A stretch of 64,000 bases of DNA from Gammaproteobacteria bacterium (GCA_965221695.1 OZ244905.1:1568001-1632000); one strand, 5' to 3'. Positions 42,409-53,684 are shown, numbered from the stretch's first letter. Numbers and translations are program-made. The notes: a model not told the origin generated them from the letters alone.

Positions 42409-42490
42409 TAGAGACACATAAGGCGCGTTCGTGCCCTGACATGACTTCCCGTTACGAAACCGTTTATGGATATTGAAAACATCATTGCTC

Positions 42491-42520
42491 ACTGGATTCC
42501 CGTTTTCACGGGAATGGTAC
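42491..42520 (-). repeat. REP-like element
   Basis: Minus strand GTACCATTCCCGTGAAAACGGGAATCCAGT. Confidence 0.7.
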
Positions 42521-42550
42521 CGGGCATAGGGAACACATCGGGAGATATCT

Positions 42551-43345
42551 ATGAGTAATCGTAGATTAGAAAGCAAAGTCGCGTTGATCACTGGTGGCGG
42601 TACCGGAATAGGAGCCGCCATTGCGCGCAGATTCGTCAATGCCGGCGCTTCCGTTGTAGTGTGCGGGCGACGGGTTGAACCTCTGCAGAGAATAGCCGAC
42701 GAAATCGATTGTCTCCCGCTCGCCGGTGACGTAAGTTCACTGGATGATTGCACGAATTTGGTGGCTGAAACAAAAAAGCAATTGGGCGGTCTTGATATCG
42801 TCGTCGCAAATGCCGGCATTTATTTCGAAGGCAGCGTCATCGAGCAAGATATGGATGAGTGGCAACGCACACTGGATATCAATGTGTCCGGTGTAATGAA
42901 TATTGCCCGTGCTGCCATACCGGAGATGCTGGGCCGCCCGGGCGCCAACATTCTGAATATTTCCTCCATGGCAGCCCTCTTCAGTGGCCCTGGAATGGCC
43001 AGCTACTCCACCGCCAAAGCCGCATTAATTGGCTTAACTCGGGCTATGGCTGTGGACTATGGCCCACAAGGAATCCGCGTTAATTGCTTATGTCCCGGCT
43101 GGATCAAAACGCCAATGAGCACACAGGAAATGCACGATTTGTCAGCCTTGAAAAATATCAGCGTCGAACAGGCTTTTTTTGAAGCGACCCGCTATCTCCC
43201 ACTTCAGAGAATGGCGGATGCAGATGAAATTGCCGCCTGTGCCGAGTTCCTGACTTCGGAAGATGCGTCATTTGTCACCGGAACCACCCTGGTTGCGGAC
43301 GGCGGTGGCTCAGCCAAAGATATTGGTACGCTGGCATTTGAATAA
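42551..43345 (+). CDS. SDR oxidoreductase
   Basis: TGGGTGIG, NAG, YSTAK, PGWIKT. Confidence 0.93.
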   Translation: MSNRRLESKVALITGGGTGIGAAIARRFVNAGASVVVCGRRVEPLQRIADEIDCLPLAGDVSSLDDCTNLVAETKKQLGGLDIVVANAGIYFEGSVIEQDMDEWQRTLDINVSGVMNIARAAIPEMLGRPGANILNISSMAALFSGPGMASYSTAKAALIGLTRAMAVDYGPQGIRVNCLCPGWIKTPMSTQEMHDLSALKNISVEQAFFEATRYLPLQRMADADEIAACAEFLTSEDASFVTGTTLVADGGGSAKDIGTLAFE

Positions 43346-43451
43346 GGCCTGTCTTATCGTTCCATGCGCAGCATTACAAATCGGGCCGGCATCCATTTGG
43401 CCAATCTGTAGTACTAACCCGAATATCCGCCCGCTATACTCATTCCCCCGG

Positions 43452-43898
43452 CTACCATACCCCCACATTCTCCGCCGACGCCCAGGGTTCCTTAGGAGGC
43501 TGGGCTTCGCCCTTCTGTAACAGCTCAATAGAAATATTATCCGGCGTGCGCAGAAAAGCCATATAACCATCCCGAGGCGGACGATTGATCGTAACACCGC
43601 TGTCAGCAATCTTCTGACAGGTGGCATAAATATCATCCACCTCGAACGCAACATGGCCGAAATTGCGCCCGCCGGTATACTCTTCCGGGTCCCAGTTATA
43701 GGTCAACTCCAGCACCGGCGCAGGCATCTTCATCCCTTCAGCCTGGTCTGCATCACCGGACGCGGCCAAAAACACCAGAGTAAAGCGGCCCTGCTCACTC
43801 TCCATCCGTTTCACCTCCCGCATCCCCATAGTACCGCAGAAAAAAGACAGACTCTCATCCAGGTCGGAAACCCGGAGCATCGTATGTAGATATCGCAT
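43452..43898 (-). CDS. gloA: Lactoylglutathione lyase (glyoxalase I, VOC family)
   Basis: [32 protein letters not shown]. Confidence 0.88.
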
Positions 43899-43919
43899 TG
43901 GTTTTCTCCTTAATCAGAA

Positions 43920-44342
43920 TTATGGAAGCCAGGCACGGCTTTCAATATTATTGCTTCCGCATGACTTGACCAGCGCATGGGGAATATTCGGGCTCGCCGG
44001 ATCAACACTTATCTCTCTGCGACCTGGGTTTACAACCAAATCCATATCTTCCATCGGCACAGCGCCGAGCAGGACTTCATCGCCAAGGACCAGGGCGCCG
44101 ACATAACAGAAACGGTCCCTGAAAGAGACCTTAATCGGACCGACATAGGGCACATTCATATTCCTGCCATCCGCCATCGACACTTCTCTCAAGGATTCAG
44201 TGCTGAGCTTGAGTTGGAGCGCAATGCGCTCGGGGATACATAACATCAACGCGCGTGTATCGGCAAGTGCATTGACCTTGATTGAAGTCAACTGCTGTTC
44301 CCGCGGATTGCTTAATTCTATTTCTGTGAAGATGTGTCCCAT
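43920..44342 (-). CDS. Clan AA (retropepsin-like) aspartic protease with altered catalytic motif
   Basis: ALADTRA (canonical DTGA), ADG, VLLGAVPMEDMDLVVNP. Confidence 0.8.
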   Translation of the reverse strand: MGHIFTEIELSNPREQQLTSIKVNALADTRALMLCIPERIALQLKLSTESLREVSMADGRNMNVPYVGPIKVSFRDRFCYVGALVLGDEVLLGAVPMEDMDLVVNPGRREISVDPASPNIPHALVKSCGSNNIESRAWLP

Positions 44343-44371
44343 AGTCTACCCAACAAACCTGTATGAACTTA

Positions 44372-44560
44372 TCACGGAAGCCAGTTATTTGAAAGCTCAC
44401 CAAGCACATTGTCTACCAACTTTACCGCATCATCAATATCCGTGTCTGTCGTGTCAAAACCAAGACTGAAACGGATGGATGCCTCCGCATCTTCAGGTGA
44501 CAGACCAATGGCTTTAAGAACATGTGAAGGTTCGGGGATGCCGGATGTGCAGGCAAGCAT
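44372..44560 (-). pseudogene. C-terminal fragment of an IscS/DndA-like cysteine desulfurase
   Basis: ACTSGIPEPSHVLKAIGL...SIRFSLG; only about 60 aa, PLP domain missing. Confidence 0.85.
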
Positions 44561-44581
44561 AATACCAATTGATTCAGAACA

Positions 44582-46279
44582 TCAACCGTGCCATTCGATC
44601 AATTGCTGATTAGCTTTCAACCTGGCCCGCTGATGCATCACGGCCTCAAAAATTATGGCTAAGTCCGATGAATCGTTGTTCAGCAAAGGTAACGCAGCTT
44701 GAGCTTCCATCAGAAACTGTTCTTTCATTGTGCTGTTAATATAACCTGCGCTCCACCAGTCTGTAATCCGTTCCCTGGAATTATGCAGTAATGGCGCTGA
44801 CGGTAGCTTTTCACGTTTTTGTCCGTTCGCCGTTACACTGGCAGGCATCAAATTCCACAGATCGTTGTTATACCATCGACTCCACGGGAAGCAATGGTCA
44901 ATCTCATAATGTTCATTCCTGAGTCTTTTATCCGTCCATACACAATGAATTGTCTTACCCTTTTGTAGTAACTGCTGCACCCGGCTTCGAGCCGGCTGGG
45001 TATCTCGCTGACCTTCATCCCATTGTAAAGCCCTGTAGTAAATTGAATCGTCGTAACGTGTTTGATAGCCTTGCATCAGTCTAACCCATTCGTTAACGAT
45101 GACGGGTTCTAACCAGCAAGCATACTGTCCCATACATTGCCATATTTCTGCCGGAATTTCGAAAACGCCGAATTGGCTTAGAGTCTCTTTATCAATTCGC
45201 CAGAATTTTACATTTGTTAGTTGTACTGTTTCCTTGTTACAGCTAAATACCGGATCATCCCTGCCTGGATGTGTAATGAATTTCGTAGGCATTTTTTGAA
45301 TATTTTCACAAATATCCCTGATCGCGCCGATTACAAAGCGAGCATGTTCCGAATCAAACTCCGCACCAATTCTAAGGTCAAATGATGAGAAGCGATTTAA
45401 CTGATAGAAGTTATCCTTTGCAAAGCCTAGATACCTTCGATTCGATATATCATGCCTCGGGTTTTGAGGAAGCTCATGTTGCAACACCAAAGGCATATAG
45501 AGCTTGAGCCAATATAATCCTACCAGCCCGAATGGTATTTCGACTTTATCATCGGTACGCTTGCTGACCATTCCTGGCGCGCCCTCTGCGATGTGAATTA
45601 AGGCGCGCAATAAACCCAGCTTATAAGTGGCTGACTTATCGTCATTGACTATGATATGACGCAATAGGGGCAAACTACCCGTGCCATCATCCGGCAATTG
45701 AAAGACCACCGTCTCCCAATGAACATCCGGCCGGGCAAGATTGTCCTCGGAACTTTCATAAAAGACTTGTGCCAATGCGCGTTGCTTGGCGAGTTGTTCC
45801 AGTTCCCCGCTGCTAACCTCATGGAAACCTCTATCAAGGTTTTCCTGCTCATCGTTTCCGTGACGGAGTGTGAATACCAGGATACCTCCCTGCGCAAGAA
45901 GTTCGCCAATGATGCGAAACGCCCTCTCTCTTTTATTCGGTGACACATGCATCCATACGGCGCTCAGAAGTATCAGGTTGAAACGGTGGCCGGCAGCTCG
46001 CAGGGATTTCAATTCCGGCAGTTCATCACCCTGCCATATGACATTAGCATGGCTGCCCGGTTTGGCCAGTTCCCGAAACGCTTTACATGGCTCAACGGCA
46101 ACCACATCCCAACCCTTATCAGCCAGCCAGTTCGCATCGCGCCCGCTGCCGGCCCCAATGTCCAAGGCGATGCCCGGATTATCCGGAATGAAACGGGACC
46201 AAGACGCATGCAGTGATTCGGGATCCAGGGAGTCGTACCTGGAAACCAGTTTTCGCGCATTGTCCGAATAATATTTCAC
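44582..46279 (-). CDS. Class I SAM methyltransferase fused to HNH endonuclease (start uncertain, may extend to 46342)
   Basis: LDIGAGSGRDA, LSAVWMH; middle KSATYKLGLLRAL; C-terminal EIDHCFPW...NDLWNLMP...NGQK. Confidence 0.85.
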   Translation of the reverse strand: MKYYSDNARKLVSRYDSLDPESLHASWSRFIPDNPGIALDIGAGSGRDANWLADKGWDVVAVEPCKAFRELAKPGSHANVIWQGDELPELKSLRAAGHRFNLILLSAVWMHVSPNKRERAFRIIGELLAQGGILVFTLRHGNDEQENLDRGFHEVSSGELEQLAKQRALAQVFYESSEDNLARPDVHWETVVFQLPDDGTGSLPLLRHIIVNDDKSATYKLGLLRALIHIAEGAPGMVSKRTDDKVEIPFGLVGLYWLKLYMPLVLQHELPQNPRHDISNRRYLGFAKDNFYQLNRFSSFDLRIGAEFDSEHARFVIGAIRDICENIQKMPTKFITHPGRDDPVFSCNKETVQLTNVKFWRIDKETLSQFGVFEIPAEIWQCMGQYACWLEPVIVNEWVRLMQGYQTRYDDSIYYRALQWDEGQRDTQPARSRVQQLLQKGKTIHCVWTDKRLRNEHYEIDHCFPWSRWYNNDLWNLMPASVTANGQKREKLPSAPLLHNSRERITDWWSAGYINSTMKEQFLMEAQAALPLLNNDSSDLAIIFEAVMHQRARLKANQQLIEWHG

Positions 46280-46400
46280 AGTTCTCAAGGATAGTACATC
46301 TGCTGAACCTGTTGTAAGATATTGCACCTTGCGGTTGTACAAGGACGACTTCGCCTGGGGAACCAGTTGGGGGTTCAGTCACGATATTATCCTTGTCTTT

Positions 46401-47258
46401 ATGAAACAGCGCTTGCTATATATTTTGGTGTTAGCTGGTTTTTCTGTCGCCGCCTTATATGCTTCAGAACTGACCGTAATTGAAAATGCAACGCTTATTG
46501 AATCCGACATGAATGATGGTGACAGTTTTATGGTTGATGCAGGTGGTCGTCAATTGTATTTTCGTCTCTACTATGTCGATTGCCCGGAAACCTCATACAA
46601 CAGCAAACCCGACCTGGAAAGAATCCGCGAACAACAGTTCCACTTCGGCCTGGCAGAACCCCATGAAGTGGTACGCTATGGAGAAGCGGCTGCCAAATAT
46701 GTGCATCAGGTATTGTCCCAGCCATTCACTATCCATACCAGTTACGCTAACGCCCCAAGACGCTCTGCTTCCAGTCGATATTATGCATTCATCGAAACTC
46801 ACGACGGCCGGGACTTGGGCTACCTCCTTATTGAACAAGGTTTGGCTAGAATTCACGGTAAAACACGCCCCAGCCCGAATGGCAAGCCTACCCATACTGT
46901 ATTAGAAGAGTTGCAAGACCTGCGCACCGTCGCTCTGCTGAACCGAGCTGGAATTTGGCAATCAACCCAACCCAAAAGCCTGGCTGACATGCGCAAACGG
47001 CTGCGTGATGATGAACAGAAACTGAAAGAATTACAGAGTATCTTGTCGCAGAAGCGCAACCCCGATGATCCGCCCCTCAACTTGAATTCTGCATCAAACA
47101 AAGAACTCCAGTCAATTCCTGGTATCGGCCCTGCAACTGCCAACAAAATTACCGCCGCCAGACCTTACCGGTCCGTTGATGACTTGTTGAGTATTCCAGG
47201 GATTGGCCCGAAGACCTTAGAGAAGATTTCTCCTTACGTGACAGTAAAGGATGAATAA
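46401..47258 (+). CDS. Exported SNase-like nuclease with C-terminal ComEA-like HhH domain
   Basis: Signal/TM; NDGDSF, RLYYVDCPE, LIEQGLAR; LNLNSAS..LQSIPGIGP and LSIPGIGPK. Confidence 0.82.
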   Translation: MKQRLLYILVLAGFSVAALYASELTVIENATLIESDMNDGDSFMVDAGGRQLYFRLYYVDCPETSYNSKPDLERIREQQFHFGLAEPHEVVRYGEAAAKYVHQVLSQPFTIHTSYANAPRRSASSRYYAFIETHDGRDLGYLLIEQGLARIHGKTRPSPNGKPTHTVLEELQDLRTVALLNRAGIWQSTQPKSLADMRKRLRDDEQKLKELQSILSQKRNPDDPPLNLNSASNKELQSIPGIGPATANKITAARPYRSVDDLLSIPGIGPKTLEKISPYVTVKDE

Positions 47259-47357
47259 TCAGATAATTATGAAAAACTAAGCATCCTGATAGCTTGCTTT
47301 TCTGATACAACTCTGAACTGGGGTGTGCACATCAGACAAGAATGAAAACATCCTGAT

Positions 47358-47387
47358 TTGACAACCTCGAAGACTTGCATATAAAGT
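47358..47387 (+). promoter_or_regulatory. Sigma70-like promoter of unit 1
   Basis: TTGACA (47358-63) then TATAAAGT (47380-87); both boxes kept in copy 2 (50588-50617) while the spacer diverges. Confidence 0.65.
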
Positions 47388-47390
47388 AAC

Positions 47391-47510
47391 TCCTGAGAGC
47401 AGTCCCGAACTGTCGCCGGATGCGGCAGTAATGCAGAGGGAACAATAATCCGGGCTGCCTCCCGCTGGGTTTATGGTCGGCGGAGCAAGGGTCGGTGTTC
47501 CGGCCAAGTG
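47391..47510 (+). ncRNA. Candidate structured leader RNA, copy 1
   Basis: Multiple stems; nearly identical to 50621-50740, and the differences keep a hairpin intact. Confidence 0.4.
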
Positions 47511-47539
47511 AAATGAACAACGAGATCGGAGAGGGAAAA

Positions 47540-47998
47540 ATGACAGATGTAGCTTTTGATACGCTAAAGATGGCGCAAGGCTTGAAGGACTCTGGCATGG
47601 AGGCCAAACAAGCGGAATCGGTGGTGATACTGGTGCAAGATGCAATTAATGAGCGAGTAGCGACCAAGGCTGATCTGGCTAAGACGGAGAATACGCTTCG
47701 TGGTGATATGGAGAAAATGGAAACATCGCTTCGTGGTGACATAGAGAATCTGCGGGGCGATATGGAGAGCATGGAAACATCCCTTCGTAGCGATATGGAG
47801 AAGATGGAAACATCCCTACGGGGGGATATGGTGAAGATGGAAACATCGCTACGCCACGAGATGGAGAAGCAGGAAATATCGATGGACCACCGGCTCAAGA
47901 ATCTGGAATTGCGGCTGATGGTAAAAATTGTCCTGATTCAAGCTGCGTTCACGGGTTCGCTCCTCGGCGCTTTAAGATTTTTTTTCTTGCCGGGATAA
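47540..47998 (+). CDS. DUF1640/CCDC90-like coiled-coil protein with C-terminal TM, long allele (152 aa)
   Basis: FDTLK...GMEAKQAE...ATKADL head, LRGDMEKMETS 11-residue repeats, hydrophobic tail. Confidence 0.8.
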   Translation: MTDVAFDTLKMAQGLKDSGMEAKQAESVVILVQDAINERVATKADLAKTENTLRGDMEKMETSLRGDIENLRGDMESMETSLRSDMEKMETSLRGDMVKMETSLRHEMEKQEISMDHRLKNLELRLMVKIVLIQAAFTGSLLGALRFFFLPG

Positions 47999-48134
47999 CA
48001 AACAATTTCCAACGCTTTGTTCTTACGGTGCGTCGGTAATACCGGCAGTTTTATTGCAACAAACTAACAGGGTTACCACGGTATAAGAACCGAAATAGCG
48101 TGGCCATCGAAGAGTAGTATTCCGGTTTTGGAAC

Positions 48135-48980
48135 TTAAGCTGCTTTTTCAATCAAATGCTTTGCTGCATCGACGGGTGAAGTGGCAGGGTACAAGCCTAA
48201 ATCTCTTTTGGATGCTTCGTAGTCTAATTCCTCTACAAATTCACTAACTTCCGAGGTTTCATCAGAATCTGGTATCTGTAGTAATAACTCACAGGATTTC
48301 GGATGAAACAAGGCGCTCTCATCCCTGAGACGGTCAAGTTGCCATAGCTTGCTCTGAGCTCTTACCAGTACTCTTTGAATTTGAGTTGATTCGGTAATTG
48401 CATCAAACTGCGCCGCATAATTACTGGATAGAAAACTGAATGATAGCGGTACGCCAGAGTCCCGGACTGGGACGCTTTTGTCAAAATAATTCAGGAAGTC
48501 TTTCCGCTCATTAGCTACGACTTTAATTATTTCACTCTGCCAGGTTTTTGGCGCAGACATTACGGAAGCTTTGTTTGACCCCGTGTTGTCTGCTTCATGT
48601 GAAGCAGCGAAAGATGAGGATTGTCGAGCTGCCCTGGATAACCCCTCCTCAATACTTTCAGCAACGGAGGAACGTAGTTCTCCAACATAAAACCTGTCCA
48701 AGGGTGGAGACCATTTGTTTGATAGCGGATTTGCCGAGTAGTACTGTTCGGCATGATCAATACACAAACTCAATGCATCTGCTATTCGAGCGCTAAATTC
48801 CCGACCGTAGATTTTTTTCAACTGAGATGTTGTGATCAGTTTTGCCGCTATCAGCTCCTGGTCGTCTCCTTTCACGATGGCCCCTAGAGTTATCCTTTCG
48901 CCCGAGAGTGGGACAGGCTCGATTTGAAGACTCCTCCATGAAAAACCGTATCCGGGTAATTCAGGAAATGATTGTGACAT
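48135..48980 (-). CDS. DUF3037-like partner of the HipA-like kinase
   Basis: N-terminal IEPVPLSGERITLG signature; ATG directly follows the kinase TGA. Confidence 0.65.
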   Translation of the reverse strand: MSQSFPELPGYGFSWRSLQIEPVPLSGERITLGAIVKGDDQELIAAKLITTSQLKKIYGREFSARIADALSLCIDHAEQYYSANPLSNKWSPPLDRFYVGELRSSVAESIEEGLSRAARQSSSFAASHEADNTGSNKASVMSAPKTWQSEIIKVVANERKDFLNYFDKSVPVRDSGVPLSFSFLSSNYAAQFDAITESTQIQRVLVRAQSKLWQLDRLRDESALFHPKSCELLLQIPDSDETSEVSEFVEELDYEASKRDLGLYPATSPVDAAKHLIEKAA

Positions 48981-49778
48981 TCATTCCTCCTCTCTCACAG
49001 TACTGTCCGGCGCTGAAAGATTTAATTCTTGTTGTTTGATATCCAGACTTTCGGTAATGATAGCATGCATATGTTTACTACGCTCAGCGAGAAATCTTAT
49101 ATATTTGCGGAATATTTGCGCGCTTCCAGGCAGGTTCTCAGTAAGCAATAGCTTATGTATTTCATTCCAATCAATTGACTTATACTCATCAATATACACA
49201 AGCGCCTTCTTCCTAATCCGATGCCGCTCCAATTCCGATTTGTTACGAGCAAGTTGCTGTAGTAGCTGTGCGTTTGCAGACGAACCGGGAGATGCGTAGT
49301 TTGGTAAGGCTTCATCGTGATCAATCAAGCGAAAATGCCTTTTGCCATGAAATATCAAGTTGTTCGGGATTCTATCCCGGTTGTAAATCCACTCATCGAA
49401 TACTGCCAAGCGGAGAACATCACTCCATCCAGAGATATCATCTTCTGTAGGAAGGTGAGTTAGCCGAAATGCTGATATTTCATCAGCTTCAATGCCAAAA
49501 GCAATGTTATGAATGTTGCTTGGACAGTAATCACTCATAATACTGGGATCGACTTGGACATAATACGGTTGCAGCATTGGGAGTTGAAGTTTCCTTGCCA
49601 ATACAGCGCACAGCGCCTCTTTGGCTACGCCGTCAATATCGATCAATTTAATATAGGCATCCTTCAGGCCCTGATCAGTAGATATTTCAGCCCTTAATGT
49701 TGCCCCTTTAGATGACGGCACCGGTTGTGCACCGGGATAAGCGGTTGCAAGCCTTATCTGAAAACAATTTGTCGTCAT
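48981..49778 (-). CDS. HipA-like Ser/Thr kinase
   Basis: AYIK, EALCAVLA..L.LP, FDEWIYNRDR..NNL, LIDHD. Confidence 0.85.
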   Translation of the reverse strand: MTTNCFQIRLATAYPGAQPVPSSKGATLRAEISTDQGLKDAYIKLIDIDGVAKEALCAVLARKLQLPMLQPYYVQVDPSIMSDYCPSNIHNIAFGIEADEISAFRLTHLPTEDDISGWSDVLRLAVFDEWIYNRDRIPNNLIFHGKRHFRLIDHDEALPNYASPGSSANAQLLQQLARNKSELERHRIRKKALVYIDEYKSIDWNEIHKLLLTENLPGSAQIFRKYIRFLAERSKHMHAIITESLDIKQQELNLSAPDSTVREEE

Positions 49779-49855
49779 TTTATCCAAGACTGAAGCGACT
49801 ATGGACTATTCAAAGACTTAATGGGATAAATTGCCATCGCACCAGGTGTATTATC

Positions 49856-50506
49856 CTACTCCAGAAGGAACTTAGAAAATCTTAGTCCTAATGGTGTGAG
49901 CCTTACCGGATAGTTTCCATAGTCGGCAGTTATAATCATGGGAGCATCACTCAGGTGAAGTAGATTGACTCTATGCAACTCTGCGACTAAAGCCATCAGC
50001 AAATCTGGCGAATATTCAGGGAAGCGGCCGTGGAGTTCACCAAAAGTAATGCTGTATGATTGGTCCTCGTTTCCTTCCCAGTTTCCTGCATTCACTACAG
50101 TGCCAATTACTTCGACGGCGCCACTGGAAAGTGTTTCCACGCAGCGGGACATATGATCCAGTTCTGTGTAGCTAAGTTTTTCCGGATCATCTTCTTGTAA
50201 CAGAAGATTTGCAAGAATAGCGGTGGCGGCCTTCAACTTATCATCGCGATGGCTCCGTATGATGGATAAATAACAAGATTTGAACAATTCAGCGAACTCT
50301 TCCCTATTCACTGTGTTCATATCAATACGATCACCAAGATTTTCGACGCGCACACGAAGGAATTCGATAGTGCGCTCTATAGATTTCTCAGTAGCGGTAG
50401 GGATGTAGTCACCAACCAAGCTTGCGATTGAGCCTCCGATATAAGGTATAGCTGACAATCCTGCCTTGATTAATGCAAGGGTATGTTTCGATGCATTTTT
50501 TGTCAT
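49856..50506 (-). CDS. Hypothetical protein (loosely DUF4393/Abi-alpha-like)
   Basis: AIPYIGGSIA N-terminus, C-terminal winged-helix-like LTPLG.RF; AT-rich. Confidence 0.55.
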   Translation of the reverse strand: MTKNASKHTLALIKAGLSAIPYIGGSIASLVGDYIPTATEKSIERTIEFLRVRVENLGDRIDMNTVNREEFAELFKSCYLSIIRSHRDDKLKAATAILANLLLQEDDPEKLSYTELDHMSRCVETLSSGAVEVIGTVVNAGNWEGNEDQSYSITFGELHGRFPEYSPDLLMALVAELHRVNLLHLSDAPMIITADYGNYPVRLTPLGLRFSKFLLE

Positions 50507-50620
50507 TTATCGAATACAACGACTATTGTTGCGCCTCAAAGATTAAGTATTCACGCAGGATTTAGGCAAGAAACATAATATCTTGATTTGACAATCTCGG
50601 AAACTCGCATATAAAGTGAC

Positions 50621-50740
50621 TCCTGAGAGCAGTCCCGAACTGTCGCCGGATGCGGCAGTAATGCAGAGGGAACAATAATCCGGGCTGCCTCCCGCCGGGT
50701 TTATATCCCGCGCGGCAAGGGTCGGTGTTCCGGCCAAGTG
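50621..50740 (+). ncRNA. Candidate structured leader RNA, copy 2
   Basis: Same length and stems as 47391-47510. Confidence 0.4.
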
Positions 50741-50768
50741 ATTTGAACAACACGATTGGAGCAGGAAA

Positions 50769-51116
50769 ATGGTTGATGCAGCTTTTGATACCCTGAAAAT
50801 GGCGCAAGGCTTGAAGGACTCCGGCATGGAGGCCAAACAAGCGGAATCGGTGGTGATACTGGTGCAAGATGCGATTAATGAGCGAGTAGCGACCAAGGCT
50901 GACTTGGCTGTGCTTCGCGGTGACATAGAGAATCTGCGGGGCGATATGGAGAAGATGGAAACATCGCTACGGCACGAGATGGAGAAGCAGGAAATATCGA
51001 TGGATCACCGGTTCAAGAATCTGGAATTGCGGCTGATGGTAAAAATTGTCCTGATTCAAGCTGCGTACACGGGTTCGCTGTTGGGCGCTTTAAGATTCTT
51101 TCTCTTGCCGGGATAA
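50769..51116 (+). CDS. DUF1640/CCDC90-like coiled-coil protein, short allele (115 aa)
   Basis: Near-identical head and tail to 47540-47998, 37 aa fewer in the stalk. Confidence 0.8.
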   Translation: MVDAAFDTLKMAQGLKDSGMEAKQAESVVILVQDAINERVATKADLAVLRGDIENLRGDMEKMETSLRHEMEKQEISMDHRFKNLELRLMVKIVLIQAAYTGSLLGALRFFLLPG

Positions 51117-51273
51117 CCAACAATTTGTAGCGCTTTGTTCTTACGCCGCCTCGGTAATACCGGCAGATTTATTGCAACAAACTAACAGGGTTACCACGGT
51201 ATAAAAACCGAAATAGCGTGGCCATCGAAGAGTAGTATTTCGGTTATGGAGTTTAAGCTGCAAAGCCGCATTG

Positions 51274-51312
51274 CTCAAACCAACGAGTCTCCGGGATTCC
51301 CGGGGCGGTTCA
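51274..51312 (+). mobile_element. Solo IS3-family (IS51/IS629-type) terminal inverted repeat
   Basis: CTCAAACCAACGAGTCTCCGGGATTCCCGGGGCGGTTCA; reverse complement begins TGAACCGCCCCGGGAATCCCGGAGACT, as at IS629-type ends. Confidence 0.8.
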
Positions 51313-51431
51313 TTATTCCGTTTACGCGTTTTTGTGAATTGTTGAAATTATAACGCGACAAACCAACCGCAACGGCCACCTTGCCCTACAAGCGCGGGTG
51401 TGTATTGCTTGATTCATTGCCGGCCTTTGCT

Positions 51432-52253
51432 TCAATGCTCTCTGATCCAGTCGATCACCCTGTTCGCCCACGGGCCTTCCGGCTTACCGCAGGCCAGGTT
51501 GGCCTGTAAGTGGTCGCAATCTTCCAGCTCCAGGGTCGCGGTCTCGCCGCCTGCGTCCCGCAGGGCTTGTTCCATCTTCTGCGCCTGCGTGATCAGGTGA
51601 GGGAAGTCTCTGCTGCCCCAGGACAGGAAGAATGGGGGCGGTGTGCCCTGGATATTGCAGATAGGGCTGGCCGTTTCTTCGTTGCCCTCCGTGCCCAGGA
51701 AGCGGGGACGCATGGACAGGCCTGAGCCGGGACGAAAGTCAAATACACCGGAGACGGGTAGGCAGCCGCGCACGACATGCGCGGGCAGCCCATAGTCTTC
51801 CTGCCAGTCTTTGCGCACGGCCATCAGGCTGGTCTGGTGGCCACCGGCGGAGTGGCCGGCGATGAACAGGCGAGTCCGGTCGCCGCTGAGCTTGTCAATG
51901 TTTTCGTAAACCCACCTCAACCCGCTCATACAGTCATCCAATCCCGCCGGGAAGACGTGAGTCGGGGCCAGGCGGTAACCGATGCTGACGAAACCAATGC
52001 CGGCCCGGGTGAGCGCCGGCGCCATGAACGCCATCCACTCCTTATAGCCGCTGGTCCAACCGCCGCCATGGACCATGATGAATACGTTACCATCCGGGTC
52101 CGGCGCCGGGAAGTAGAGCGCGCTCTGATAGGGGTCCGGACCGAAACTGTCTTCAGCGCCGCCGATTTCCGCTGCTTTTTCCAGGACGTAGCGGTTGTAT
52201 TCCTTCGCAAAGTCGGATATGGGTTCCTGTGGAGGGTATTCTTCTGGTTTCAT
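51432..52253 (-). CDS. Alpha/beta hydrolase (HSL/arylformamidase-like)
   Basis: HGGGW, YRLAP, GHSAGG, SGVFD. Confidence 0.88.
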   Translation of the reverse strand: MKPEEYPPQEPISDFAKEYNRYVLEKAAEIGGAEDSFGPDPYQSALYFPAPDPDGNVFIMVHGGGWTSGYKEWMAFMAPALTRAGIGFVSIGYRLAPTHVFPAGLDDCMSGLRWVYENIDKLSGDRTRLFIAGHSAGGHQTSLMAVRKDWQEDYGLPAHVVRGCLPVSGVFDFRPGSGLSMRPRFLGTEGNEETASPICNIQGTPPPFFLSWGSRDFPHLITQAQKMEQALRDAGGETATLELEDCDHLQANLACGKPEGPWANRVIDWIREH

Positions 52254-52502
52254 AATGCTGTCACCTGCCGGGGCAATTTGACGTGGGTTTAACCCGGTAT
52301 TATTCAGTAGAACCAGGTCGCGTCAAGTTTGTTTTTTATTTTCGCATAGATTCCCCTGGCCGCAGTCCTGCAACCAGGTTTTACCCAGATCAATGCCTGC
52401 CACCGTGATGGTCGCTAACCTGTATGTGCGCGCAGAGAGATTTTTTGTAACCAAAGCGGCATTCAGGGATAATGGCGCGGCATAATAGTAATCGGAGGGG
52501 CC

Positions 52503-53684
52503 ATGGAAACAAACACACAATCCCTTGAGTTCCGTCGGGAGCTGGAATCTCGCCAGTTTCTGGCAGCGGTGATCGTTCTCGGACTATTGGGCATTGCTTC
52601 GTTCCTGGTATTACCCTCCCTGGTTCTTGGCTTTGTCACGGACCTCGGTTTTACCGAACTTGAGATAAGCAGAATATCCACATTCCAACTGGTGGGGCTT
52701 GGTCTGGGGTCGATCGCCAGTATTTTCCTTCTGCACTACCTGCACTGGCGGAATTTGTCACGCTGTGGCCTGGCGCTGCTTCTGGCCGCTGATCTTGCCT
52801 GTTCGCTGACCGCAGATTTCTCATCGTTGTTGTTGCTGCGCTTTATTTCCGGGTTTGCCGGCGGCGTATGTGTTTCCTTTGCAGTATATGCCTTGGGGCT
52901 GACTGCCAATACCGACAGGAATTTTGGTTGGTTCATGACCATACAAGTGGGTTTTGCCATCGTCGCCAGTTTTTCGTTTCCGTCAGTACTGGATATGACG
53001 GGCATGAAGGGTATCTTTCTGATTCTGTGCCTGTTGGAACTGTTGGGCTTTATTCTCGTCTCCTGTTTTATGCCCGCTCTGCGCCGGGAAAGCGCAGCCC
53101 GAGCGCAAGGCAACGATCGGTTTCGCTGGACAATGTGCGGCCTGGTGATGTTTGGTCTGCTCTTCTTTTTCACTGCTCTAGGCGCATTCTGGACTTATAT
53201 CTCGCCTATTAGCCTTGATGCGGGTCTGAGTAAGCAACAGACCGGTATTGTAGTGAGCATGGCCTTGTTCGGGGGGTTGCTGGGAGCCTATGCCGCCACC
53301 GCGTTAAATATAAGGATCGGCCGGGTACTGCCGCTGGCTCTGGCTCTGGCTCTGCAACTGTTGGCGTTGCTTCTACTATACCAGGGTTTGGACTACGCAT
53401 TATTCTGCGTCGTCAGCGCGTTGTACGGCTTTGGCTGGTACATGTACGTCCCCTATCAGTTCGCGCTACTGGCTGATTTTGATCGGGACGGTAGACCCAT
53501 GCTGCTGCTGAATACTGTTGCCGGGCTGGGCTCCGGCCTGGGACCGGCTATCGGCGCGTTCCTGCTGGTGGACGGTTACTCCTTGCTCTATCTGTTCTGC
53601 GCCCTGATGCTTGGGGTGTCGCTGGCCTGGCACTTGAGCGCCATCGGCATAGCCCGGAACAGAAATCTGTCTTCGGCGCCTTGA
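52503..53684 (+). CDS. MFS transporter
   Basis: About 12 hydrophobic segments, LRFISGFAGG. Confidence 0.85.
   Translation: METNTQSLEFRRELESRQFLAAVIVLGLLGIASFLVLPSLVLGFVTDLGFTELEISRISTFQLVGLGLGSIASIFLLHYLHWRNLSRCGLALLLAADLACSLTADFSSLLLLRFISGFAGGVCVSFAVYALGLTANTDRNFGWFMTIQVGFAIVASFSFPSVLDMTGMKGIFLILCLLELLGFILVSCFMPALRRESAARAQGNDRFRWTMCGLVMFGLLFFFTALGAFWTYISPISLDAGLSKQQTGIVVSMALFGGLLGAYAATALNIRIGRVLPLALALALQLLALLLLYQGLDYALFCVVSALYGFGWYMYVPYQFALLADFDRDGRPMLLLNTVAGLGSGLGPAIGAFLLVDGYSLLYLFCALMLGVSLAWHLSAIGIARNRNLSSAP

Follow-up and report, generated by a model that had tools for sequence, protein, structure and literature searches.

Two same-orientation copies of a promoter-bearing coiled-coil gene enclose a putative toxin module in a 64,000-nucleotide (nt) stretch of the genome of a Gammaproteobacteria bacterium (GCA_965221695.1, OZ244905.1:1568001-1632000), hereafter the window, from whose first letter all positions are counted. 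Each copy, or unit, is made up of a promoter, a leader, a DUF1640/CCDC90-like coding sequence and a tail. Between the two lie three genes on the opposite strand, referred to here as the cargo, two of which form a pair of a HipA_2-type kinase and a partner. We consider it likely that the arrangement combines a paralog family of this lineage, a local duplication that took along 9 nt of a cargo gene, the scar of an insertion sequence (IS), and a kinase module imported into a chromosomal hot spot. It is also probable that the two copies are substrates of homologous recombination and no dedicated cargo-capturing device, the role that an earlier, sequence-only reading had proposed for them. The cassette-like look of the region would then have come about by ordinary steps, a gene being duplicated with a few bases of its neighbor and an IS trimming the product.

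The genome that holds the window (G000) is a single contig of 3.54 Mb with a mean guanine-plus-cytosine (GC) content of 55%. A repeat search returned three collinear blocks of direct repeats, 47334-47539 with 50564-50769 (206 nt, 88% identity), 47537-47680 with 50766-50909 (144 nt, 92%) and 47816-48115 with 50934-51233 (300 nt, 93%). The earlier description of two same-orientation copies of one unit holds, with copy 1 at 47334-48143, copy 2 at 50564-51261 and a likeness of 88-93%. In the pairwise alignment, homology extends from about 47334 to 48143 in copy 1 and to 51261 in copy 2, the last shared letters being TTAAGCTGC, and copy 1 contains extra 33-nt coding repeats relative to copy 2. The unit has a GC content of 49%, and the three cargo genes have 43-45%, which falls within the lowest 1-5% of 800-bp windows of the genome.

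The possibility of an assembly artefact was examined with contigs of the public runs X1, X2 and X3, which come from three studies. Both junctions, from the tail of copy 1 into the cargo and from the cargo into copy 2, are bridged by contigs of all three runs. More specifically, the X1 and X2 contigs span 48092-50648 without a difference, and the X3 contig spans 48187-50648. Furthermore, the two copies have different repeat numbers, and about 10% of their positions differ. The repeat survives this check, the two-copy arrangement is confirmed as real, and we give an assembly artefact practically no chance.

Each unit carries the signals of a gene of its own. Copy 1 begins with a promoter-like site (TTGACA, 18 nt, TAAAGT; 47358..47387), followed by a leader, or 5' untranslated region (UTR), of about 150 nt with a GGAG Shine-Dalgarno sequence (47388..47539; five genome copies at 92.5-100% identity), a coding sequence for 152 amino acids (aa; 47540..47998) and a tail (47999..48143) with a terminator-like hairpin and T-run at 48032-48056. 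Copy 2 repeats this order, with promoter (50588-50617) and leader in 50564..50768, a coding sequence for 115 aa at 50769..51116 and a tail at 51117..51261 with a terminator-like hairpin and T-run at 51151-51173; all these features lie on the plus strand and derive from the repeat search, alignment, a signal scan and translation. In both copies the hairpin and T-run stand 35-55 nt past the stop codon. The sequence-only reading had named the TTGACA boxes, a conserved leader (47391-47510), a DUF1640/CCDC90-like gene in each copy and a conserved tail (47999-48143), and all four were recovered: the leader is 94% identical in copy 2, the tail is 91.6% identical over 143 nt, and the two proteins score 51.1 and 36.6 bits against PF07798, whose gathering cut-off in Pfam is 33.5 bits. 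Upstream of the promoter, the locally duplicated segment includes 47279..47357 (plus strand; BLAST and alignment with locus L022 of G008, a close relative whose flanks are 97-98% identical to those of G000). Homology there begins at 47279 with units A and C of G008 and at about 47334 with copy 2.

To compare the copies, we aligned 14 units from four genomes, 12 of them from G000 and G008 and the remainder from G021 and G007. In G000 itself the promoter, leader and coding sequence occur in five places by BLAST, namely the two window copies (c1 and c2) and three dispersed ones (c3, c4 and c5), and a covariance model of the leader (R1) retrieved the same five only. The TTGACA box is conserved in the 12 G000 and G008 copies, and TTTGCA takes its place in G021 and G007. 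All 14 coding sequences are intact. Given these signals, the intact coding sequence, the PF07798 match and the five genome copies, the unit reads as a complete gene with a near-consensus sigma-70-like promoter, a 5' UTR of about 150 nt, a DUF1640/CCDC90-like coding sequence and an intrinsic terminator, and as a member of a paralog family.

The encoded proteins are 101-257 aa long and share one layout in the 14 copies, consisting of a near-invariant N-terminal head of 47 residues, a short motif, a stalk of 11-residue repeats (..LRGDMEKMETS..) and a hydrophobic C-terminus. Read by eye, the motif is VATKAD or VATKDD in the 12 G000 and G008 copies and VATRTD in those of G021 and G007. The stalk comprises 2 to about 15 repeats, which appear in copy 1 as a 33-nt period with 3.8 repeats at 47757-47880. 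The hydrophobic stretch (..MVKIVLIQAAFTGSLLGALRFF..) is present in 14 of 14 copies and was read by eye as a putative membrane anchor. Stalk length changes fast, as same-position copies of G000 and G008 measure 152/181, 130/141 and 224/257 aa.

We know of no function for bacterial DUF1640 proteins. The likeness of the unit proteins to the family (PF07798, with MCUR1 and CCDC90B in mitochondria) consists of the Pfam score above the cut-off, the hydrophobic C-terminus and a motif at the start of the stalk. They differ from it in being short and in having a stalk of 11-residue repeats whose number depends on the copy, and the 150-nt leader common to the units was found in this genus only. According to one published account (PMC4786415), the start of the DUF1640 stalk carries a beta-layer motif, [aliphatic]-A-T-K-[polar]-[D/E], and the VATKAD-type motif of 12 of the 14 unit proteins fits it.

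The leader was further investigated at the level of RNA. At a permissive E <= 1, Rfam returned two chance-level matches over 43000-53000, neither of them in a unit; at the gathering score it returned none in the c3-c5 loci, and a tRNA scan of five loci was equally empty. The fold of the leader (z = -1.45) is no better than that of shuffled sequence, and the z-scores of leader and tail are not significant on either strand. An alifold model has 35 pairs, 1 of them compensatory, and was matched by 83 of 500 shuffles, the 14 sequences being too alike (mean identity 89%). Averaged over 66 pairs, identity is 0.906 in the leader, 0.940 in the first 141 coding nt and 0.865 in the last 120 coding nt. 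An apparent better conservation of the leader than of the gene was discarded as an artefact of repeat-number differences. The leader can be described from these comparisons as a conserved 5' UTR for which a regulatory role is plausible. As a guess, CUCC near its 5' end might pair with the GGAG Shine-Dalgarno sequence. We attach a slim chance to the reading that it is an undescribed cis-regulatory RNA in control of a variable-length, membrane-anchored coiled-coil family.

The evidence for the duplication lies at the outer edge of the tail. The cargo gene next to copy 1, which encodes 281 aa on the minus strand, ends at 48135 inside TTAAGCTGC, so the final 9 nt of the tail double as its stop codon and last two codons, an overlap that the sequence-only reading had described correctly. 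These 9 nt (GCAGCTTAA on the reverse strand) are native 3'-terminal sequence of the cargo gene, because the consensus of the 281-aa family ends in ..AA and conserves A281 in at least 90% of the 34 members aligned, and because the homologue in genome G016 has the same two final codons and stop. The same 9 nt end copy 2 and unit A of G008, where no cargo gene follows, so both must descend from a unit that was already in contact with the 281-aa gene. As a candidate recombination site, TTAAGCTGC was rejected, since its 9 nt come from the cargo gene itself, were duplicated together with copy 2 and are now truncated by an IS remnant.

This remnant, a 54-bp right end of an IS3-family element (51259..51312, plus strand), is 92.6% identical to positions 1256-1309 of a 1309-bp element and overlaps the last 3 nt (TGC) of the copy 2 tail. 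The statement that no transposase lies inside the arrangement is true between the copies, but it misses the IS end that abuts copy 2. The parent IS is present in G000 in three full copies (99.3-100% mutual identity) and one partial copy, and its open reading frames (ORFs) match HTH_Tnp_1, HTH_21 and rve. Its ends read TGAACCGCCCC..GGGGCGGTTCA, with TGAACCGCCCCGG as the left and ..CCGGGGCGGTTCA as the right inverted repeat. We take it to be an IS3-family member from the known architecture of OrfA (HTH) plus OrfB (rve) and TG..CA inverted ends. The remnant recurs in G008, where it comes after unit A.

Based on these junctions, three steps would lead to the present layout. In the first, a unit of the copy 1 type would have come to stand tail-to-tail with an imported module of HipA_2 kinase and 281-aa partner. 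In the second, the unit plus 9 nt of the cargo gene would have been duplicated, most simply by a tandem duplication of unit and cargo together. In the third, an IS3-family element would have come to lie beyond the second cargo copy, and a deletion would have taken that cargo copy and most of the IS, leaving 54 bp. The sharp edge of the tail would be the scar of that deletion.

Two observations on the tail stand beside this. Its last 27 nt or so (48117-48143) resemble the junction of the esterase start region and the 281-aa gene end in G016 (locus L063), sharing TTCCGGTTT and then ..AAGCTGC. The 9-nt match of the tail to the G016 esterase start is left unexplained, and the remaining tail is dissimilar to the esterase gene; a comparison of the tail with the esterase 5' end gave no significant similarity (score 22, shuffle maximum 27).

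The close relative G008 offers a second version of the region. G000 has the order methyltransferase-HNH gene, SNase gene, c1, cargo, c2 and esterase gene. In G008 the order is methyltransferase-HNH gene, LysM-like fragment, unit A, SNase gene, unit B, an unrelated 178-aa ORF, unit C, a broken VapC-like gene and esterase gene. After unit B, the final 46 nt of the 281-aa gene survive as a relic, and unrelated DNA follows. The point at which the cargo was exchanged therefore lies within the cargo gene and not at the end of the unit. Unit A ends like c2, and unit C has the tail in common for about its first 65 nt only, the part with the terminator. The VapC/PIN-like gene between unit C and the esterase gene (L022 12530-12940) is frame-broken. 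Elsewhere in G008 (C1, L023 5900-9200), two divergent units flank about 2 kb with small lipoprotein-like ORFs and, by eye, a fragment like an Rhs/YD-repeat core, with an RTX-like gene adjoining.

Several points weigh against the duplication scenario. The order of events was reconstructed rather than observed. G008 has the module of unit, 9 nt and IS remnant in another place, upstream of the SNase gene, and its outer junction of IS relic and 46310, with three letters between, is identical to what a head-to-tail joining of G000 segment 46310-51312 would give. To derive the G008 layout, another tandem duplication, a circular intermediate or an event at an IS end has to be assumed as well, and the derivation is incomplete in this respect. 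In addition, four of the five G000 copies adjoin IS remnants or repeat clusters, and c5 is an insertion, its neighbor genes being only 100-118 bp apart in G013, G015 and G019; for these reasons some mobility of the unit is real, by means that are unexplained. Lastly, the leader is conserved and has no assigned function. The head-to-tail joint of G008 also occurs as an X3 contig at depth 46, beside a contig with G000-type cargo at depth 62. It fits a past larger tandem duplication or a circular intermediate, and the X3 case may reflect a G008-type strain in the sample.

The distribution of the unit argues for a family of recent and local origin. Seven genes of G000 pass the PF07798 cut-off, five with the leader and two without, and the family counts five copies in G000 and seven in G008. 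With the leader and gene unit counted genome-wide, the suggestion that the unit is dispersed is borne out. The leader is present in four of the 23 genomes of the genus set (G000 included) and in none of 18 further genomes outside the genus. Among 30 DUF1640 loci of the species collection it accompanies seven, all from three gammaproteobacterial records of metagenome-assembled genomes (MAGs), and it is absent from the 23 non-genus DUF1640 loci. A 23-base leader pattern had no match in metagenome contigs, where only protein relatives of 31-43% identity were found, and the DNA of the unit matched nothing in plasmid and phage collections. Taken from these searches, the family is young and lineage-restricted, confined to a few species of one genus. 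It holds a modest interest as a lineage-restricted, gene-converting DUF1640 family with a long common leader and a variable stalk. DUF1640-like relatives of 31-48% identity (loci L038-L061) come from MAGs of Gemmatimonadota, Latescibacterota, Longimicrobiales, Bacteriovoracia, Spirochaetia and Alphaproteobacteria, and none has the leader.

In the dispersed copies c3, c4 and c5, homology is limited to the part that starts with the -35 box and ends with the stop codon; c3 and c4 share about 50 nt more with each other. The 145-nt tail is found in G000 in c1 and c2 only. Labelled by eye, the neighbors of c3, c4 and c5 are a gene for an RTX-like giant protein, a sulfatase gene, a porin gene and pyrroloquinoline quinone (PQQ) genes. 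Compared with their G008 counterparts, c4 is collinear at 96% and c5 at 84%. Further, c4 (G000:C1:2235310-2236004) sits at a synteny break relative to other species; its right-hand neighbor lies about 14 kb from the window esterase in G022 and about 600 kb away and inverted in G000, and no link of the break to recombination between units was established.

One explanation for this dispersal is passive spread by insertion sequences, in composite, one-ended or adjacent-rearrangement form, with the copies marking old IS activity in place of duplication by host recombination. The IS3 end abuts both copy 2 and unit A of G008 with an identical inner junction and different outer flanks, and the full element is present in three closely matching copies. 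By eye, 160 nt after c3 (L014 781-940) resemble part of an IS256-type transposase (..TTNAIESLNCVIRKAVKKRKLF..), and the stretch has matches in several genomes of the genus. Moreover, c5 has a cluster like repetitive extragenic palindromes (REP) on its promoter side, and c4 is followed by a repeat of about 160 bp (L013 781-949) with seven G000 copies, five of them clustered at 1.950-1.963 Mb. Against this, none of the units has an IS end on both sides, target duplications were not seen, the remnant is only 92.6% identical to the live copies and hence old, and the unit was not found in plasmid or phage collections. We regard spread of this kind as unlikely. A REP-like palindrome, about 35 bp long, also lies in the window at 42486-42531 (..CACTGGATTCCCG....CGGGAATGG..); BLAST gave about 100 matches for it in G000 and many elsewhere in the genus, and the cluster adjoining c5 is like it.

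Recombination between copies is visible in the sequences. A tree of the leader and first 141 coding nt is star-like, and 8 of its 11 inner branches are unresolved. Orthologues as defined by flanking sequence (c4 with G008_b, c5 with G008_g) do not group in it, and c3 and c5 of G000 pair with support 95/98. This star-like, mosaic pattern shows gene conversion among the copies. A variant that covers the ribosome-binding region and the first codons occurs in six of the seven G008 copies and in one of the five G000 copies. With direct repeats of this kind (0.7-0.8 kb, about 90% identical), the intervening 2.4 kb are also expected to be lost or amplified on occasion. The read contigs of X1-X3 gave no sound evidence of an excision or collapsed allele. 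The sole candidate found when a collapsed allele was looked for, a joint from 47727 to 50935 in one X3 contig, falls in the 33-nt repeats with a shorter side of 32 nt in a mixed-strain sample. It was discounted, and it is probably a paralog of a co-occurring strain.

These results bear directly on the proposal that copies of the unit, as portable homology anchors or non-autonomous elements, recombine with each other and so capture, swap or excise defence cargo in an integron-like or composite-transposon-like way. The part of it that concerns dispersal and exchange stands. The unit has five dispersed copies and undergoes gene conversion, G000 has two units and G008 three with different DNA between them inside nearly identical flanks, two more G008 units flank the region with Rhs-like fragments, and the G008 junction equals the head-to-tail joint described above. 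The part that concerns capture and excision is not supported. A search with Pfam found no integrase or transposase domain in any ORF of 46300-51430. There are no terminal inverted repeats, a comparison of the c5 insertion with empty sites revealed no target duplication, and the dispersed copies are bounded by gene ends, which vary from copy to copy. The tail is local, its junction letters are native cargo sequence, and the G008 breakpoint lies 46 nt within the cargo gene. Cargo at this site turns over free of any unit in five of five other species checked, the kinase pair is unit-free in G016, G350 and a Marinobacter plasmid, and the only collapsed joint lies inside the 33-nt repeats. On this balance, an anchor that captures cargo seems quite improbable.

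Comparison with known cassette systems leads in the same direction. Integron cassettes resemble the region in having promoter-bearing repeats beside swappable small genes. In contrast to integrons, 46300-51430 has no intI, no attC-like sites and no inverted repeats at the cargo borders, the window cargo is transcribed towards the unit, and the junctions are at no fixed site. With composite transposons and IS-bounded translocatable units, the region shares direct repeats around cargo and an IS end at one border. It differs from these, and from miniature inverted-repeat transposable elements, in that the repeats have neither a transposase nor inverted ends, the downstream ends differ, and only a 54-bp IS relic is present. 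A further possibility, to which we attach a slim chance, is that DUF1640 units are portable homology blocks, spread into variable regions and held alike through gene conversion, at which unequal or ectopic recombination repeatedly amplifies, deletes and relocates the toxin and defence modules in between. If true, this would amount to a recombinase-free cassette-shuffling system peculiar to this lineage. The weaker idea that the repeats promote rearrangement of the DNA between them appears doubtful to about the same degree.

The duplication scenario also includes the import of the cargo into a variable chromosomal site. Variable hot spots between conserved core genes collect defence and toxin-antitoxin modules. 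The left border here is a methyltransferase-HNH fusion gene of 586 aa (44582..46342, minus strand; Pfam Methyltransf_23/11 and HNH_4, PADLOC mad2 at 6e-14), and the right border is an alpha/beta-hydrolase (esterase) gene (51432..52253, minus strand; Pfam BD-FAE and Abhydrolase_3) that is 81-86% identical across the genus. The two border genes are neighbors genus-wide, and all six aligned loci of other species match both and nothing from 46300-51430. The first occupant of the variable site is a nuclease gene with SNase and helix-hairpin-helix (ComEA-like) domains (46329..47258, plus strand; Pfam HHH_3 1e-16, SNase 4e-6), whose true start is probably later than 46329; it is absent from the same six loci and present in G008. 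The methyltransferase-HNH gene has a GC content of 47%, yet is conserved here at 71-79% in all six.

The content of the site varies from species to species. It is a single Macro-domain gene in G022 (556 bp), an equally short 556 bp in G015 (length only, its ORFs being outside the scan), DUF6088, Macro and MazE in G002, GNAT and MazE-PIN in G019, Macro, DUF6088-AbiEii and Macro in G003, and Macro, an AAA ATPase and a DDE transposase in G018. Judged from these gene contents, the site is a hot spot throughout the genus, where toxin-antitoxin and abortive-infection modules replace one another with no unit present. It resembles the hot spots known for such modules in its two conserved border genes and in a content that ranges from one Macro gene to several kb of toxin-antitoxin and abortive-infection genes and transposases, and it differs from them in also holding duplicated copies of a host paralog family. 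A well-defined toxin-antitoxin and defence hot spot in an uncultured group is of modest interest in itself.

The cargo agrees with the earlier description of three AT-rich antisense genes, which encode 216, 268 and 281 aa on the minus strand. The 268-aa gene (48981..49787) had been called HipA-like, and its product does match HipA_2 (PF20613, residues 52-167) at 39 bits against a gathering cut-off of 27, with a PADLOC match to PDC-M66A at 1e-5. It abuts the 281-aa gene (48135..48980) with zero gap. The 216-aa gene (49856..50506) lies outside the conserved kinase pair, as the G016 match stops at 49781, and it had no match in Pfam, NCBIfam or PADLOC. Its assignment as Abi_alpha, an Atlas lead (25% of one cluster), was dropped, as Pfam at E <= 10 left it unconfirmed.

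The 281-aa gene has 130 homologues, none with a Pfam domain, and the label DUF3037-like that it had been given found no sequence support in family, genome and profile-profile searches. DUF3037 was matched by none of 34 family members at E <= 1, PF11236 had no match in the G000 genome at E <= 10, and hhalign of the family with six DUF3037 proteins of similar length gave E 0.18, with one aligned stretch at an equivalent N-terminal position. The AlphaFold (AF2) model has a mean pLDDT of 85. Its residues 149-281 superpose on 2a1i with Z 10.3 and a root-mean-square deviation of 2.4 over 104 residues, and on this model the C-terminal domain is predicted to have a restriction-endonuclease/ERCC1-like fold. 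A Foldseek search of the model on the Protein Data Bank (PDB) returned nothing at E <= 0.001, and a PDB sequence-profile search with the family found none.

The kinase and its partner travel together in other genomes. G016 has the pair directly 5' of the esterase gene at 78% DNA identity over 1.64 kb, with the 216-aa gene outside the match and no unit or leader in the genome. In G350, which has no unit, the 281-aa homologue is 54% and the kinase 37% identical, and in G153 a weak kinase match lies beside a 281-aa homologue. The 281-aa protein was found in three of 400 genomes of the class (G350, G153 and G000), and the kinase is directly upstream of the homologue in three of three loci (G016, G350 and, weakly, G153). 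On the Marinobacter plasmid NZ_CP092286, which has no unit, a gene annotated as HipA family kinase overlaps the 281-aa homologue by 4 nt.

In two reports (PMC12548924, PMC13092281), pairs of a HipA-like kinase and a DUF3037 protein are described as the PADLOC candidate PDC-M66 and the validated DS-6/HipAD, in which a kinase toxin and a neutralizing partner act against phages, the kinase being required for defence and loss of the partner being toxic. The window pair resembles HipAD, DS-6 and PDC-M66 in its order, where a partner of about 280 aa comes directly after a kinase of about 250-270 aa, and in a kinase that meets the HipA_2 Pfam cut-off and weakly matches PDC-M66A. It differs from HipAD/DS-6 in that its partner has no detectable DUF3037 or DUF1829 and has the predicted restriction-endonuclease/ERCC1-like C-terminal fold. 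By analogy, we read the pair as one that would work like HipAD, with a putative kinase toxin held by its partner. A HipA_2 kinase with a partner that is not detectably DUF3037 is of modest interest, and the pair may be a new variant of HipAD-type systems.

The DUF1640-like protein could itself be a functional part of this kinase module, for example as a membrane-anchored sensor or scaffold. The unit is convergent with the module and tightly beside it, units recur in variable, conflict-type regions, and there is a weak PADLOC match to LeoC (9e-4). These points are countered by the unit-free kinase pairs of G016, G350 and the Marinobacter plasmid, by the lack of such neighbors at c3, c4 and c5, and by G016 having no leader match, and we regard a functional tie of this kind as very improbable. 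To the left of the site, at 43920-44560, lies a 140-aa ORF with weak retropepsin-like matches (E 0.003). To the eye, the 62-aa ORF beside it resembles the C-terminus of a cysteine desulfurase, and it is possibly a gene fragment.

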